From assembly GCF_003334335.1 (NCBI RefSeq), contig NZ_QOWQ01000012.1: a DNA stretch of 64,000 nt; one strand, 5' to 3'. The notes below the pieces were generated by a model. The model was not told the origin of the DNA and made no database searches. It was given only the letters and a program-made list of their open reading frames with translations. Origin of the DNA: Escherichia coli (GTDB lineage Bacteria; Pseudomonadota; Gammaproteobacteria; Enterobacterales; Enterobacteriaceae). The translations under genes and the position numbers were made by a program. Shown here in pieces: positions 1,476-29,310 of the stretch (positions are counted from its first letter, which is position 1; every line of letters starts with the position of its first letter).

Positions 1476-1505
1476 TTAACCATTCCCATACAATTAGTTA
1501 ACCAA

Positions 1506-1536
1506 AAAGGGGGGATTTTATCTCCCCTTTAATTTT
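1506..1536 (+). terminator. Putative rho-independent terminator after clpX
   Basis: GC-rich inverted repeat (aagggggga...tcccctt) followed by a T-run directly after the clpX stop. Confidence 0.4.
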
Positions 1537-1546
1537 TCCTCTATTC

Positions 1547-1582
1547 TCGGCGTTGAATGTGGGGGAAACATCCCCATATACT
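1547..1582 (+). promoter_or_regulatory. Putative sigma32 heat-shock promoter of lon
   Basis: TTGAA-containing -35-like element (about 1553-1557) and CCCCATAT -10-like element (about 1572-1580) upstream of lon; resembles the sigma32 consensus. Assigned by pattern only. Confidence 0.45.
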
Positions 1583-1662
1583 GACGTACATGTTAATAGA
1601 TGGCGTGAAGCACAGTCGTGTCATCTGATTACCTGGCGGAAATTAAACTAAGAGAGAGCTCT

Positions 1663-18756: not shown

Positions 18757-19146
18757 TTAGTAGTTCCAGCGATAACGCTGCAAGTCGATTTGCCCGCTTC
18801 CCGATACCATCACACCTTCTGCCAGTAATGCCTGTCGCTGACGCTGTAAATCCGGTCCGGTTAGCGAAATTGTGCCGTGGCGATTAACCACCCGGTGCCA
18901 GGGTAAGGTGCTGCCTTCAGGGAGACGCTTTAACACACCGCCCACCTGGCGCGCGGCGCGGGGCGATCCCGCCAGTTTCGCCACATCACCGTAAGTGGTG
19001 ACATAGCCTTCGGGAATAGCGGCGACGATTTGCCAGACGCGTTGGGGAAATGAATCTTCTTTTTCCATCTTTTCTTCCTGAGGTAATTTTTCAGCATAAT
19101 CTGGAAAAACGCCCGAGTGAAGTCGCATTGCGCAAGAAACCAGCAT
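18757..19146 (-). CDS. atl: DNA base-flipping alkyltransferase-like protein Atl (YbaZ)
   Basis: 129-aa protein from ATG at 19146 (MLVSCAMRLHSGVF...), with an MGMT-like winged helix but no active-site Cys motif; the ORF track starts 7 codons upstream. Confidence 0.88.
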   Translation of the reverse strand: MLVSCAMRLHSGVFPDYAEKLPQEEKMEKEDSFPQRVWQIVAAIPEGYVTTYGDVAKLAGSPRAARQVGGVLKRLPEGSTLPWHRVVNRHGTISLTGPDLQRQRQALLAEGVMVSGSGQIDLQRYRWNY

Positions 19147-19222
19147 CTGGCACGCGATGGGTTGCAATTAGCCGGGGCAGCAGTGATAATGCGCCTGCGC
19201 GTTGGTTCTCAACGCTCTCAAT

Positions 19223-19336
19223 GGGGGCTCTGTTGGTTCTCCCGCAACGCTACTCTGTTTACCAGGTCAGGTCCGGAAGGAAGCAGCCAAGGCAGATGAC
19301 GCGTGTGCCGGGATGTAGCTGGCAGGGCCCCCACCC
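19223..19336 (+). ncRNA. ffs: 4.5S RNA (signal recognition particle RNA)
   Basis: 114-nt stretch GGGGGCUCUGUUGGUUCUCCCGCAACGCUACUCUGUUUACCAGGUCAGGUCCGGAAGGAAGCAGCCAAGGCAGAUGACGCGUGUGCCGGGAUGUAGCUGGCAGGGCCCCCACCC, recognised as E. coli 4.5S RNA, in the atl-ybaA intergenic region. Confidence 0.95.
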
Positions 19337-19446
19337 ATTTCTGCCTCCCACCGTTTCGTCAAAAAATCCCAACATGGCTAAACTTTAACCACAACTGACG
19401 TCGCAAGAATTGTCTGGCTGCGCAGTACGCTTCGGAGGTATGTCTG

Positions 19447-19800
19447 ATGAAGTATGTTGATGGTTTTGTGGTTGCCGTTCCTGCCGATAAAAAGGATGCC
19501 TATCGGGAAATGGCCGCTAAGGCTGCGCCATTGTTTAAAGAGTTTGGCGCGCTTCGTATTGTCGAATGCTGGGCCAGCGATGTACCGGATGGCAAAGTGA
19601 CCGATTTTCGTATGGCGGTGAAAGCGGAAGAGAATGAAGAGGTTGTCTTTAGCTGGATTGAATACCCTTCAAAAGAGGTCCGCGACGCTGCTAATCAAAA
19701 GATGATGTCGGACCCACGGATGAAAGAGTTCGGCGAGTCCATGCCGTTTGACGGCAAGCGAATGATCTATGGCGGATTCGAGTCAATCATCGACGAATAG
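19447..19800 (+). CDS. ybaA: Uncharacterised DUF1428-family protein YbaA
   Basis: 117-aa ORF MKYVDGFVVAVPADKKDAYREMAAKAAPLFKEFGA, preceded by GGAGG SD. Confidence 0.9.
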   Translation: MKYVDGFVVAVPADKKDAYREMAAKAAPLFKEFGALRIVECWASDVPDGKVTDFRMAVKAEENEEVVFSWIEYPSKEVRDAANQKMMSDPRMKEFGESMPFDGKRMIYGGFESIIDE

Positions 19801-19841: not shown

Positions 19842-21392
19842 TCACAAATGTTGCTCGGCCCAGCGTAAGAAATCTTCTTTCGGTAATGCCTTGCTGTAGA
19901 GCCAGCCCTGACCGTAGTGCACGCCATGCTGGCGTAACCACTCTTCTTGTTTACTGGTTTCGATTCCCTCCGCTACCATTTTCAGTTTCAGTGTTTTTGC
20001 CATTTCGATGATATGCGGCGTGACATTTTTATATTCCAGCGCATCAACGAAAGATTTATCGATCTTCAGAATGTCGACATCCAGATCCTGTAAATAACTT
20101 AAACTTGAATACCCCGTACCAAAATCATCAAGATAAATTTCATGGCCCGCCTCCCGGTAGCGAGAAATTATCGGGGCGCTGGTTTTCGGATCGGCAAACT
20201 CGCGTTCAGTGAGTTCAAGCGCGATCTGTCTGGGATTAACCTGATAGTGATTGATCATGTCACGCAGCAATTGCGGGATTTTTTCCGAGGTGAGCACGGG
20301 GGATTCAAGATTGATCGAAATATGCTGCTGTGGATGCTGACGCAGCCAGTCGCCCATATCTTCAAAGACGCTTCTTATAATCAGTAGCGTCAATGGCTCA
20401 GAAAGGCCCGTTTGCTGTGCCAGCGGAATAAAACTATCTGGTGACAACCAACTACCGTCTGTCTGCGGCCAGCGCGCCAGTGCCTCAGCACCGACAATTT
20501 TGCCATTGGCTAAGGAGACAATCGGCTGATAGTGCACGCAAATATCACGATTTTCGATAGCATCCTGCAGCCGATGATGCGGTGACTGAATACGGCGCAA
20601 AATACGCAGCACAAACATCGCTGCCAGCAGGCCAATCACCAACCCGAGCGGTAACCAAATAAAGACTTGCCGATGCCAGCCTTTCTGCAACATTTTCGTT
20701 GAAGCCCATGTGATGATCGAAATATTCATCTCCGGTAAGGGCAGGATATCGTAAATGATTCCATTATTTTCGATATGCTCACCGGGTGTTTTTTGTAGCC
20801 TGGTAATAATTCCCTGAGCAATTTCATCGCTGCTGGTTATGACAACGTTATGGACATTGCCAATAATGGCGGCATCAATTTGCCATGAGCTATAGGGAAT
20901 GACATCAATAAAGGAAGCGGGGTCGATCATGACGACATAATGTGCCGTTCCCATGGCGACCATGTAACGGATAATGCCTAAATCGTTATGCGATGTTAAC
21001 CAGACACGATAACCATCTTTCGAAATTTTACCTGGCTCGGGGAAGGTATCGGGCGGACTTTCATGCTCCAGAGACGAACACTGGGGAACGTTGTTATCGA
21101 TATAAGCCACTTCCTGAATATAGCGATAACTGTAAGATACCCGACGCATTTCCATGAGATGGGCTTCGCTACAGGCAGCGCCTTGCCATCTTTCCAGCTC
21201 CTGCAGCGCATCTTTCCCTTGTGTCGCCACCTTATTGGCTCGAATAGCGACGCGGGAGGAATAGGTATCCAGCTCTTCAATAAACGATGTTTCTACCTGC
21301 TGATGGGCCAGCCAGATGCTTAAGCCGACAGGCAGCAATACTGAAAGAATCAGTACTCCCGAAATAAGGCCGACCAGATGTCGTGTTCTCAC
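19842..21392 (-). CDS. pdeB: c-di-GMP phosphodiesterase PdeB (YlaB), CSS periplasmic sensor plus EAL domain
   Basis: ORF with N-terminal TM helix and C-terminal EAL domain (motifs EALxR, DDFGTG). The track starts at ATG 21398; I prefer GTG 21392 (516 aa) because an AAGG SD sits about 6 nt upstream of it. The start is uncertain by 2 codons. Confidence 0.88.
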   Translation of the reverse strand: MRTRHLVGLISGVLILSVLLPVGLSIWLAHQQVETSFIEELDTYSSRVAIRANKVATQGKDALQELERWQGAACSEAHLMEMRRVSYSYRYIQEVAYIDNNVPQCSSLEHESPPDTFPEPGKISKDGYRVWLTSHNDLGIIRYMVAMGTAHYVVMIDPASFIDVIPYSSWQIDAAIIGNVHNVVITSSDEIAQGIITRLQKTPGEHIENNGIIYDILPLPEMNISIITWASTKMLQKGWHRQVFIWLPLGLVIGLLAAMFVLRILRRIQSPHHRLQDAIENRDICVHYQPIVSLANGKIVGAEALARWPQTDGSWLSPDSFIPLAQQTGLSEPLTLLIIRSVFEDMGDWLRQHPQQHISINLESPVLTSEKIPQLLRDMINHYQVNPRQIALELTEREFADPKTSAPIISRYREAGHEIYLDDFGTGYSSLSYLQDLDVDILKIDKSFVDALEYKNVTPHIIEMAKTLKLKMVAEGIETSKQEEWLRQHGVHYGQGWLYSKALPKEDFLRWAEQHL

Positions 21393-21555
21393 CAGCATAT
21401 CCTTATTAACACAGTGTAGGGAAAGTATATCTGATTGTGGAAAAAGGCTGGCTGGAGATAAGGAGGTAGAGCTGGTATTTCATGAAGTGATGGGTGGAAA
21501 CGATCATTGTCATTTGACCAGGCGCAGAGCTTTACGCCTGGTATGTAACCCTAAC

Positions 21556-22026
21556 TTAAGATGTTGATTCGGCGCGAGCGAGGGTAAAAATATCGTAAAA
21601 AGACAGTTCACCTTTACGGACGATCATTTTTTGCAGTTGTTCCTTATGAACATCCGCGACACGCGGAGAGTTCAAGATGGCTTCAACCAGCGCGGCAGGT
21701 ACAAAGCGCGTGTTGTACCATTCGCCGTTATAGCAAACGCGGAAATCCAGCACGTCGATATCTTCATAGCGGTAGCGTGGGTAGACATCGAAAAAGAAGA
21801 AACCATTAAGCAGGATAAATAATACAACCAGTAGCCAGACAGAGCCTGACAGCGTTTCGGACTGCAACATCACCGCCAGGGTGGCAAAAAAAGCAACGTA
21901 CATACCGATAAACAGCCCCGGATGTTTACGGATAAAACTGATACTAAAGCGGGGTTTGTTGTCGCGTTTTTCGCGGGTATTCAGAGACTCAATCGTTTCG
22001 GTCAGCAGGCGTTGTATTTCGGTCAT
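21556..22026 (-). CDS. ylaC: Uncharacterised inner-membrane protein YlaC
   Basis: 156-aa protein [27 protein letters not shown] with two predicted TM helices; the ORF track starts 13 codons upstream. Confidence 0.88.
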
Positions 22027-22141
22027 CGTTTGCCTTCGTGGTATCTGCAACTTTCCAGGGAACACCCTATTTTAACGTGGGAATAGTAGAGGGGAAGTAA
22101 CAGATCTACCACAATTTTGCATAACAGTTGCGAAAAACCGA

Positions 22142-22693
22142 TTACAATTTTTTAATTATTCTGGCTGGATTACCGCCCACGACAACGTTGTCCGGGACAT
22201 CTTTTGTGACAACTGCACCTGAGGCTACCACGACGTTATCACCAATGGTCACACCAGGGTTAATGACCGCGCGTCCGCCAATCCAGACGTTATTACCGAT
22301 GGTGACGGGTTTCCCCAGTTCAGCACCGCTATTACGTGCTACAGGGTCGATGGGATGTGTTGCCGTGTAGATATGAACGCCTGGTGCCAACATACAGTTA
22401 TCACCGATGCGAATAGGGCAGACATCAAGCATCACGCAATCGAAGTTGGCGAAAAAATTATTACCGAGAAAAATGTTATAGCCATAGTCACAGCGAAACG
22501 TTGGCTCAATATAAGCCTCTGTCACCTGACCGAATAGATCAGCGAGAATTTGCTGGCGTAATGTGTGCTCTTCCGCCAGGGAATGATTGTATCGGTGAAT
22601 AAGCTGACGAGCGCGCAGGCGATCGCGAGATAACGTCTCATCTGCCGAGCGATACAACTCACCAGCAATCATCTTTTCTTTTTCTGTGCTCAT
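22142..22693 (-). CDS. maa: Maltose O-acetyltransferase (hexapeptide-repeat acyltransferase)
   Basis: 183-aa [24 protein letters not shown] with left-handed beta-helix hexapeptide repeats. Confidence 0.94.
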
Positions 22694-22864
22694 TACTGAC
22701 CTCCGGTTGCTGAAAATGCGGCAACACAGTAAGACGAAAAGTCAGTGAAGAGAACGTTCCCATTACATCTGTGTGATAAAGATCACATAGGGTATGTCTT
22801 CATGGCGAAAAAGTATAAAATTCTTAATAAACAGCCGGTTATAGCTCCGAAAGCGAATTATTTA

Positions 22865-23083
22865 TTAGCGAATAAATTTCCATACTGAGGAAGGGATCTT
22901 GTCGTACAGTTTATTCATGGTCAATTCGGCGAGGCGGTGATCTGCGGCTGAGTAAAATACCGCCAGTTCATTATCTGATAATTCGTATTTATTTTTCTCG
23001 ATAACACGCTCCAGCGTGTCAATTGTCTGGCAACGACGTAAACGCATTAAATAATCGGTTTTCGTTAAAGGTTTTTCGGACAT
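22865..23083 (-). CDS. hha: Haemolysin expression-modulating protein Hha (H-NS co-regulator)
   Basis: 72-aa protein [72 protein letters not shown] from ATG at 23083; the track's 154-aa ORF is an N-terminal over-extension running into tomB. Confidence 0.95.
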
Positions 23084-23108
23084 ACTTCTACCTATGGTTG
23101 TAATAATT

Positions 23109-23483
23109 CTAACAAGATAAACTCGCAGGATTCTCTTTCGTCGCATTGACAAAACAACGGAATAGTCGATTACCTGACTTCCGCCATTTCTGAAGATCCT
23201 GCATATTAATACCATAACTACTGAACAACATAAAGGTGTCATCCAGATATTCGTCGATCTGCTCAATGAGCTTATTGTCTTCATTATACTTAATTTTGTA
23301 ATTAAGTGCGAAGGTCGCAATATGCTCAATCAGTTCATTCAACTGGAGGTTGATCGCCGAGGTTGGGTCGTTTACCCAGCCATGATTGCTTTCTTCAAGG
23401 TTTGCAAGGCAGTCATGATACAGGGTTTCACAGAGAAACTTAAGCTGTGCGATATCATGTCTTTTGGGTGAGTATTCATCCAT
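23109..23483 (-). CDS. tomB: Hha toxicity modulator TomB (YbaJ)
   Basis: 124-aa [39 protein letters not shown], 25 bp upstream of hha on the same strand. Confidence 0.94.
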
Positions 23484-24028
23484 AACGCGTCCCCTTCTTA
23501 GCGGTTGAACTAACGGACACCTTTCGGGATGGAAAAAACTTACTGACCTGGACTTGCCCTCTCGTTTGTTAGCTTAACTATAAGCCACTCTTTGCAGGTT
23601 TTCATCGCATTATTACGAAAAATTACAATTAGGAAGGAAGCGGGACAGGACTCATTTTTTCATACTAGCACTAACCCGCAGCAGGTAAAAGCAGTTTGCT
23701 CGAACTATTCATAACATTTCAGGATTATCGCCAGATGAAATTGGTGACACTAATACCAGGATTGCTCTGAATATGACGTAATAACCGAGGAATGAATAAA
23801 GAATTACCGCAAATAATTAAGAATAGCCTCTAAATGATTATGGATTATTAAATCTATTAGCGCTACTTAATATAAATTAACTAACAATCAGTATTTTTTA
23901 TGAATTTTATCCGTGGTTAATACTGGTTTTCGTATGAGATCCTGAGTTGGTGGTTCAATTACTCCTTAATGTTCGTAGGTTATGCATAAAAAAGGCCGCT
24001 TACGCGGCCTTAGTGATTACACGTTGTA

Positions 24029-27181
<3,153 letters not shown>

Positions 27182-27200
27182 TTAACGGCTCCTGTTTAAG

Positions 27201-28394
27201 TTAAGACTTGGACTGTTCAGGCTGAGCACCGCTTGCGGCTTGCTGGTTATTATCAGCGGTAACTTCTTGTGCTTTTACCTGGACACCAGGACGCACTTTC
27301 TGCAGCCCACTTATTACTACGCGATCGCCTGCTTTCAGACCTTCTGTCACCAGCCACTTATCGCCAATAGCCTGGCTTGCAACGATCGGACGGGTTTCCA
27401 CTTTGTCATCCGCGCCAACTACCAGTACGGTGGCATCGCCACGCGGCGTACGGGTTACGCCCTGTTGCGGGACTAAAATAGCGTTTGGATTAAGCCCTTC
27501 TTCCAGACGTGCGCGCACGAACATACCCGGCAGCAGAGTGTGATCCGGGTTCGGGAAGATAGCGCGTAGGGTGATAGACCCAGTGGTCTGATCAACGGTA
27601 ACGTCAGAGAATTCCAGCGTACCGTCCTGCGGGAACTTAATGCCGTCACTGGTGATCAGTGACACTTTGGCTTTGCCGTTCTCTTGTTTCAGCGTGCCAT
27701 TCGCCAGTTCCTGTTTCAGGCGCAGGAAGTCGTTGCTGGACTGGGTCACATCAACGTAGATCGGATCAAGTTGCTGCACGGTTGCCAGCGCAGTCGCCTG
27801 ACCGTTCTGTACCAATGCGCCTTCCGTCACGTTCGACTTACCAATGCGACCGCTAATCGGAGAGGTGACTTTGGTGTAAGCCAGATTGATCCGCGCAGTT
27901 TCAACGGCAGCTTTCGCCGCAGTTACCGCAGCATTCGCCTGTTGCGCATCAGCCAGAGCCTGATCGTACTCTTGCTTACTGATGTACTGAGTACCGAGCA
28001 GTTTCTGATAACGATTCACCGTCAATTGCGCGATATTGGCTGCAGCCTGGGCTTTCGCCAGATCACCTTTCGCACTGTCGTATGTCGCCTGATAGGTCGC
28101 AGGATCAATCTGATAGAGAGAGACACCTGCTTCGATGTCGCTACCTTCTTTGAAATTACGCTTCAGGATAATCCCGCTAACTTGAGGACGAACTTCTGCG
28201 ATCCGGTAGGCACTGGTGCGACCCGGAAGCTCGGTTGTGATCTGCAGAGGTTCAGTTTTGACTGTTACTACGCCAACGGCGGGCATCTGCTGGCCACCTT
28301 GTTGGGCCTGTTTGTCGTCACATCCTGTTAGGGCTAAGCTGCCTGAGAGCATCAGAACGACCGCCAGAGGCGTAAACCCTCTGTTTTTGTTCAT
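27201..28394 (-). CDS. acrA: RND efflux periplasmic adaptor (membrane fusion) protein AcrA
   Basis: 397-aa lipoprotein MNKNRGFTPLAVVLMLSGSLALTGC from ATG at 28394; the ORF track starts 12 codons upstream. Confidence 0.95.
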   Translation of the reverse strand: MNKNRGFTPLAVVLMLSGSLALTGCDDKQAQQGGQQMPAVGVVTVKTEPLQITTELPGRTSAYRIAEVRPQVSGIILKRNFKEGSDIEAGVSLYQIDPATYQATYDSAKGDLAKAQAAANIAQLTVNRYQKLLGTQYISKQEYDQALADAQQANAAVTAAKAAVETARINLAYTKVTSPISGRIGKSNVTEGALVQNGQATALATVQQLDPIYVDVTQSSNDFLRLKQELANGTLKQENGKAKVSLITSDGIKFPQDGTLEFSDVTVDQTTGSITLRAIFPNPDHTLLPGMFVRARLEEGLNPNAILVPQQGVTRTPRGDATVLVVGADDKVETRPIVASQAIGDKWLVTEGLKAGDRVVISGLQKVRPGVQVKAQEVTADNNQQAASGAQPEQSKS

Positions 28395-28483
28395 ATGTAA
28401 ACCTCGAGTGTCCGATTTCAAATTGGTCAATGGTCAAAAGTTAATAAACCCATTGCTGCGTTTATATTATCGTCGTGCTATGG

Positions 28484-28507
28484 TACATACATTCACAAAT
28501 GTATGTA
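28484..28507. promoter_or_regulatory. AcrR operator (24-bp palindrome) in the acrAB/acrR divergent promoter region
   Basis: Perfect inverted repeat TACATACATT-CACA-AATGTATGTA between acrA and acrR. Confidence 0.7.
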
Positions 28508-28535
28508 AATCTAACGCCTGTAAATTCACGAACAT

Positions 28536-29183
28536 ATGGCACGAAAAACCAAACAAGAAGCGCAAGAAACGCGCCAACACATCCTCGATGTGGCTCTACG
28601 TCTTTTCTCACAGCAGGGGGTATCATCCACCTCGCTGGGCGAGATTGCAAAAGCAGCTGGCGTTACGCGCGGTGCAATCTACTGGCATTTTAAAGACAAG
28701 TCGGATTTGTTCAGTGAGATCTGGGAACTGTCAGAATCCAATATTGGTGAACTAGAGCTTGAGTATCAGGCAAAATTCCCTGGCGATCCACTCTCAGTAT
28801 TAAGAGAGATATTAATTCATGTTCTTGAATCCACGGTGACAGAAGAACGGCGTCGATTATTGATGGAGATTATATTCCACAAATGCGAATTTGTCGGAGA
28901 AATGGCTGTTGTGCAACAGGCACAACGTAATCTCTGTCTGGAAAGTTATGACCGTATAGAACAAACGTTAAAACATTGTATTGAAGCGAAAATGTTGCCT
29001 GCGGATTTAATGACGCGTCGCGCAGCAATTATTATGCGCGGCTATATTTCCGGCCTGATGGAAAACTGGCTCTTTGCCCCGCAATCTTTTGATCTTAAAA
29101 AAGAAGCCCGCGATTACGTTGCCATCTTACTGGAGATGTATCTCCTGTGCCCCACGCTTCGTAATCCTGCCACTAACGAATAA
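28536..29183 (+). CDS. acrR: TetR-family repressor of acrAB
   Basis: 215-aa [55 protein letters not shown] (TetR HTH), divergent from acrAB. Confidence 0.96.
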
Positions 29184-29310
29184 CCCTGAATCTGACTCCA
29201 GGATTTTTCCTGGACATTTTCGTCGTTGCTATTCTGGTTCACTGCGTCGTGATATTCTTGCGGTTTGACTTTTTCAGGTCGTTCTTCAGGTTCAGAAACC
29301 TTCATTCATC

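Follow-up and report, generated by a model that had tools for sequence, protein, structure and literature searches.

Between the genes atl (ybaZ) and ybaA of Escherichia coli lies a stretch of DNA that raises a simple question: does it hold a gene of its own and, if so, where does this gene begin and end, and for what else is the site used? The original prediction placed here, within 19200-19340, a 114-nt sequence that was recognized as the gene for 4.5S RNA, ffs. 4.5S RNA and Ffh together constitute the signal recognition particle (SRP). In the window, by which is meant the complete stretch of 64,000 nucleotides under analysis, a 114-nt sequence can indeed be read on the plus strand, starting with GGGGGCTCTG at 19223 and ending with GGGCCCCCACCC at 19336; its ends and its length are therefore as predicted. 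The motif GGTCAGGTCCGGAAGGAAGCAGCC, put forward as the conserved domain IV region, is found at 19265-19288. The coordinates of all features are collected in Table 1.

Table 1. The ffs gene, its substructures and its surroundings in the window
Feature	Position	Strand	Remarks
atl/ybaZ, left neighbour	18757-19146	-	ORF, alkyltransferase-like, 129 aa with the long start; divergent from ffs
Predicted sigma-70-like promoter of ffs	19162-19190	+	-35 TTGCAA 19162-19167, 17-bp spacer, -10 GATAAT 19185-19190
5' leader of the 4.5S precursor	19197-19222	+	about 22-26 nt; length from literature and promoter position
Mature 4.5S RNA (ffs), GGGGGCUCUG...GGGCCCCCACCC	19223-19336	+	114 nt, single long hairpin with a 4-nt 3' overhang ACCC
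RF00169-matched part, also the RefSeq/PGAP span of ffs	19231-19327	+	97 nt
Domain IV (helix 8)	19261-19289	+	loop positions from fold
Asymmetric loop A39-C40-C41-A42 / A67	19261-19264 / 19289	+	from fold
Symmetric loop C46-A47-G48-G49 / A60-G61-C62-A63	19268-19271 / 19282-19285	+	from fold
GGAA tetraloop G53-A56	19275-19278	+	from fold
Distal segment G83-U84-G85-C86-C87-G88-G89	19305-19311	+	invariant in 11 gammaproteobacterial sequences
TGGCAGGGCCCCCACCCATTTC, last 17 nt of ffs and 5 downstream bases	19320-19341	+	candidate attachment-site core (attB), unoccupied; one copy in the window
ybaA, right neighbour	19447-19800	+	DUF1428 protein, 117 aa

The identity of this sequence can be judged from two sides. 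A search of the whole window against Rfam 15, the type of covariance-model check on which the prediction had been staked, matched RF00169 (Bacterial small SRP RNA, clan CL00003) at 68.1 bits, 28 bits above the gathering score of 40 (E = 5.5e-13); a local scan of the ffs region gave E = 3e-15. The match covers the full model, positions 1 to 97, with the same single hairpin, GNRA tetraloop and domain IV loops, and a permissive local scan brought up no credible rival Rfam family at this place. Furthermore, the 351 bases from 19100 to 19450 have 100% identity with their counterparts in E. coli K-12 MG1655 and in many other strains. Promoter, leader, mature RNA, downstream spacer and neighbours are thus those of K-12 ffs (4.5S RNA, b0455), without a single difference, and the RefSeq label of MG1655 at the same spot reads "ffs: signal recognition particle sRNA small type".

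The neighbours had been rightly named as well. On the left, the minus-strand ORF, which RefSeq calls "MGMT family protein", has a translation that contains PWHRV, in which a tryptophan takes the position of the catalytic, reactive cysteine of the methyltransferases Ogt and Ada. This replacement is known as the hallmark of alkyltransferase-like (Atl) proteins. With the superfamily-level "ogt" model the protein scores 53.2 bits, far under the equivalog cut-offs of Ogt and Ada. RefSeq/PGAP assigns it a shorter start (18757-19068, 103 aa); the form of 129 aa is, as we take it, that of the K-12 reference annotation. On the right, the plus-strand ORF is ybaA, encoding a DUF1428 protein.

Of 5426 complete E. 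coli genomes, 5425 contain exactly one copy of the 114 nt, and in 5421 the identity is at least 99%. The single copy and the canonical order atl(ybaZ)-ffs-ybaA, with the neighbours as in the K-12 annotation, establish orthology. It might be supposed that the sequence is a degenerate or additional copy of an SRP RNA gene, a pseudogene rather than the functional ffs. This deserves hardly any credence: the sequence is identical to the K-12 ffs region, each of the 5425 genomes with ffs has it at one place only, and it occupies the canonical position between atl and ybaA. K-12 identity and single-copy status therefore exclude such a copy. Nothing in the analysis was found to contradict the identity as ffs, and it is practically certain that the plus-strand sequence at 19223-19336 encodes, in single copy, 4.5S RNA, the small SRP RNA of bacteria. 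Since the sequence fully matches the textbook K-12 gene, ffs itself was already known and holds no novelty. On a side note, one of the 5426 "complete" assemblies has no ffs match at all, and in two assemblies the sole copy lies on a record labelled as a plasmid. Because ffs is regarded as essential, these cases are probably artefacts of assembly or labelling.

Folding of the 114 nt gives a single extended hairpin, paired over nt 1-110, with a minimum free energy of -57 kcal/mol. The z-score against dinucleotide shuffles is -3.15, and the minimum-free-energy structure coincides with the centroid structure. There is a single hairpin in the range of about 100-115 nt and no Alu domain, as in small SRP RNAs, and domain IV shows its GNRA tetraloop together with one symmetric and one asymmetric loop. 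These loops are elements of the well-established binding site of the Ffh M-domain. Further away from the tetraloop, the distal segment G83-G89 presumably serves as the docking and activation site of the Ffh-FtsY GTPase complex, as known from published SRP structures.

The conservation of the molecule is in agreement with this fold. In a scan of one genome per species, exact copies of the 22-nt core GTCAGGTCCGGAAGGAAGCAGC were seen in at least 120 contigs, from phyla that include Proteobacteria, Bacillota, Actinomycetota, Chloroflexi, Nitrospirota, Spirochaetota, Planctomycetota and Cyanobacteria. In the set of 118 sequences, columns 44-65 are invariant by construction of the core scan. Outside the search pattern, A39 shows no variation, and A38 and C41 are conserved to at least 90%, as are G83 and G85 of the distal segment across many phyla. 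The closing pair just beyond the pattern, G43-C66, forms in every one of the 118 sequences and shows 44 compensatory double changes.

Covariation was scored for the helix as a whole. For the 118 segments, aligned with MAFFT and thus not in a structure-aware manner, the score is 0.332 against a shuffled mean of 0.174, a value reached by none of 500 shuffles, while the best slid register attains 0.225. Pairing is seen in 67.5% of the cells (49.3% for the best slid register), and changes on both sides in 37 of the 42 pairs. Since the alignment method takes no account of structure and only this portion of the cells is paired in the outer helices, the count was redone on 11 gammaproteobacteria, which align almost without gaps and therefore give cleaner numbers. 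Here the score amounts to 0.379 (shuffled mean 0.208, again 0 of 500 shuffles; best slid register 0.147), 90.6% of the cells are paired (best slid register 51.0%), and both sides have changed in 18 of the 42 pairs. The helix is thus maintained by compensatory change in the set of 11, and the set of 118 agrees.

Within E. coli, both of the two SNP alleles examined preserve the pairing: G99A turns a G.U into an A-U pair, and C80U a G-C into a G.U pair. A third allele, of strain EC77 (locus L002, 331-333), carries a tandem duplication of the 3 nt CTC after nt 31, just past window position 19253. It adjoins the internal loop of nt 29-30 and is still labelled ffs; either a genuine variant or a sequencing error could account for it.

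The original prediction also held that the gene is invisible in a list of open reading frames. This needs a slight correction: two spurious ORFs run across ffs on its own strand, at 19050-19388 (112 aa) and 19117-19299 (60 aa). Therefore, a view based on ORFs only would miscall the gene rather than show a blank. It could be argued that one of these ORFs is a real protein gene and the RNA match incidental, as both are mechanically present. However, the ORF of 112 aa matches no NCBIfam family even at E up to 1, the ORF of 60 aa has one match alone, at chance level (E = 0.14), and in none of the RefSeq records that were listed or inspected is a coding gene annotated under the ffs match. Moreover, the longer ORF runs antisense over the 5' part of atl, and the pattern of conservation is that of a paired RNA with compensatory changes, which speaks against coding. 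A protein gene at this place is exceedingly improbable. The locus thus illustrates a point of annotation: an essential non-coding gene is skipped by protein-only pipelines, which could even put a spurious ORF of 112 aa in its place.

As for the expression of ffs, the predicted TTGCAA-17-GATAAT promoter is the only promoter-like site in 18900-19700. The start predicted from it, 19197, lies 7 nt past the -10 element and at -26 from the mature 5' end, in agreement with RNA-seq data in which the 5' ends of the 4.5S precursor are located "primarily at -26" (PMC5499578). The same study refers to earlier work that gave a leader of 22 nt and mentions possible minor, longer precursors with starts near -127 and -153. 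When 19197-19380 is folded, a small hairpin appears within the leader, at 19199-19215. A GC-rich stretch, GCGCCT, is situated between the -10 element and the predicted start; by analogy with other stable-RNA promoters, it suggests that ffs may be subject to stringent or growth-rate control. Downstream of 19336, a search of the plus strand gave no canonical intrinsic terminator. The sole terminator candidate, at 19214-19228, falls inside the leader and the 5' end, occurs at chance rate, and was rejected.

That the hairpin is nothing but a DNA structure of the intergenic region, a terminator of a neighbouring gene or a REP-type repeat, is the least credible reading of all, for although ffs is a long GC-rich hairpin and REP-like elements (the naRNA4 matches) do occur elsewhere in the window, atl is transcribed away from ffs and ybaA lies downstream of it, so that the hairpin terminates neither, and its uniqueness in the window and in each genome, its own predicted promoter and a 22-nt loop region identical across bacterial phyla, unlike any REP element or terminator, exclude both.

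With ffs thus retained as an RNA gene, its mature ends have to be considered. Taking over the ends of the model, which covers 97 of the 114 nt, the RefSeq/PGAP annotation starts 8 nt too late and stops 9 nt too early. RF00169 does not reach the terminal 8 base pairs or the ACCC tail at the 3' end. The terminal pairing is kept in homologues from Pseudomonas, Rheinheimera, Providencia, Citrobacter and Enterobacter. The exact ends, 19223 and 19336, are supported by the literature, by the K-12 annotation and by the reach of the conserved pairing. An extent beyond that of RefSeq is favoured because nt 1-110 pair with each other, because the homologues keep the terminal pairing, and because the mature RNA has been reported to end in 3'-CCC (PMC5499578). 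Automated RefSeq annotation therefore cuts ffs down to the extent of the Rfam model, and the 3' part that is omitted overlaps the 22-bp core at 19320-19341, which is discussed below.

On the basis of these features, the pathway in which the RNA takes part can be outlined. Transcribed from its own sigma-70 promoter (19162-19190), ffs would yield a precursor whose 5' leader, about 26 nt long, would be taken off by RNase P. Exonucleases, mainly RNase T, would trim a short extension at the 3' end. Through the two internal loops of domain IV, the 114-nt hairpin would then bind Ffh to give the SRP, which would recognize hydrophobic signal sequences during their exit from the ribosome. The receptor FtsY may be recruited with the help of the GGAA tetraloop, upon which the Ffh-FtsY GTPase pair would move to the hairpin's conserved distal end. 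There, GTP hydrolysis would be triggered and the ribosome would be passed on to the SecYEG translocon. Several of these steps have a published basis: cleavage of pre-4.5S RNA by RNase P and the role of 4.5S RNA in SRP are both supported by PMC7049720 and PMC5499578. For the 3' end, PMC1935012 names RNase T and RNase PH as trimming enzymes, with reference to Li, Pandit and Deutscher (1998). Cells have been reported to be viable with a 5'-extended 4.5S RNA. For the gene in the window, Ffh binding, co-translational targeting and essentiality are inferred from the 100% identity to K-12 and from the literature.

In comparison with SRP RNAs of other organisms, ffs shares domain IV (helix 8) and the adjoining long helix 5 with the scRNA of B. 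subtilis, with other large bacterial SRP RNAs and with the eukaryotic 7SL RNA. Among the matches listed, the 22-nt core is identical in contigs of Bacillota, Actinomycetota, Chloroflexi and others. The E. coli RNA consists of the S-domain hairpin only, whereas the large SRP RNAs also have an Alu-like domain. Accordingly, the B. subtilis scRNA, a functional homologue of 4.5S RNA, is 271 nt long, has an extra Alu-like domain, and is matured by RNase III instead of RNase P (PMC1935012).

Besides encoding an RNA, the 3' end of ffs seems to be used by mobile DNA. In strain 162.2, the only one in which the repeats were mapped, a perfect 22-bp direct repeat, TGGCAGGGCCCCCACCCATTTC, flanks an insertion of 9,886 bp between ffs and ybaA (locus L126, copies at 20002-20023 and 29888-29909). 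A tyrosine integrase gene (phrog_1, E = 2.5e-37) starts about 100 bp past ffs, whose 3' end is rebuilt without change by the left repeat copy. Both the window and K-12 show the empty site. Repeats at both junctions, one of them lying over the 3' end of ffs, an adjoining integrase gene and an unoccupied site elsewhere, the attributes of an attB, are thus found together.

This arrangement is not limited to one strain. Of the 5426 complete E. coli genomes, 62 have an integrase gene adjoining ffs. In all 5425 genomes with ffs the upstream half of the locus is uninterrupted, while the downstream half maps to two places in 57 and is cut short in 7. In strain FCI56, homology ends 5 nt past the mature 3' end of ffs; a gene for a site-specific integrase and then IS1 follow, and ybaA and pdeB are lost. 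Three islands of about 8.5-10 kb were compared, and they have in common the tyrosine integrase as well as a module of Hin-like recombinase and DUF2188 protein. The remaining cargo varies: strain S1-ESP-03-A has an AAA ATPase and the R subunit of a type III restriction enzyme, and the others have either a RipA-family membrane protein or a pair of genes for products of 570 aa and 366 aa. The coordinates of the other loci concerned are 20145-21218 for L125 and about 20110-30300 for L127 and L128. It is, in our estimation, slightly better than an even guess that 19320-19341 constitutes a recurrent attachment site of E. coli, used in about 1% of the complete genomes by an island family (about 8.5-10 kb) whose members combine a tyrosine integrase and a conserved Hin-like recombinase/DUF2188 module with variable, partly defence-like cargo.

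Such a use of ffs would resemble that of tRNA and tmRNA genes as integration sites, where the 3' end of a small stable-RNA gene is the att site as well and is regenerated by the integration. Other elements have been described at ffs. Phage phiEf11 has its attB in the ffs gene of Enterococcus faecalis, and its authors found no other example among prophages (PMC12540744). Type I-F3b CRISPR-associated transposons (CASTs) also target ffs (PMC11406308). The phage is reported to alter the 3' end of ffs, whereas the E. coli island restores this end exactly. Furthermore, the element of E. coli is neither a prophage nor a Tn7-like transposon; it is a small island, about 8.5-10 kb in size, that combines a tyrosine integrase with variable cargo. 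A limited literature search brought up no published description of an island at ffs in E. coli, which is no proof of novelty. If the proposed use is true, the SRP RNA gene joins the stable-RNA genes that serve as landing sites for mobile elements in E. coli, and its 3' end represents a small hotspot with variable cargo that may merit mining for defence genes.

In the island of strain 162.2, PADLOC recognized no known defence system; its hits were restricted to a candidate-family match of the DUF2188 protein (PDC-S16) and a marginal match to PD-T4-6. The hypothetical gene of 570 aa in this island contains a long run of the hexanucleotide GCTGTG (L126, 25493-25634), which could be a slippage-prone tract.

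Finally, the window holds some other RNA elements at a distance from ffs. Rfam matches were obtained for the small RNAs sraA (1496-1591, minus strand, 106.7 bits, full model) and sroB (49979-50062, plus strand, 82.1 bits). Inside dnaX, the DnaX programmed -1 ribosomal frameshifting element (RF00382) was matched on the plus strand at 36131-36195 with 96.8 bits. The family naRNA4 (RF02564) has matches at 44222-44299, 51360-51437 and 51461-51538, two of which score on both strands and stand in tandem; these matches look like palindromic repeats of the REP/BIME type.
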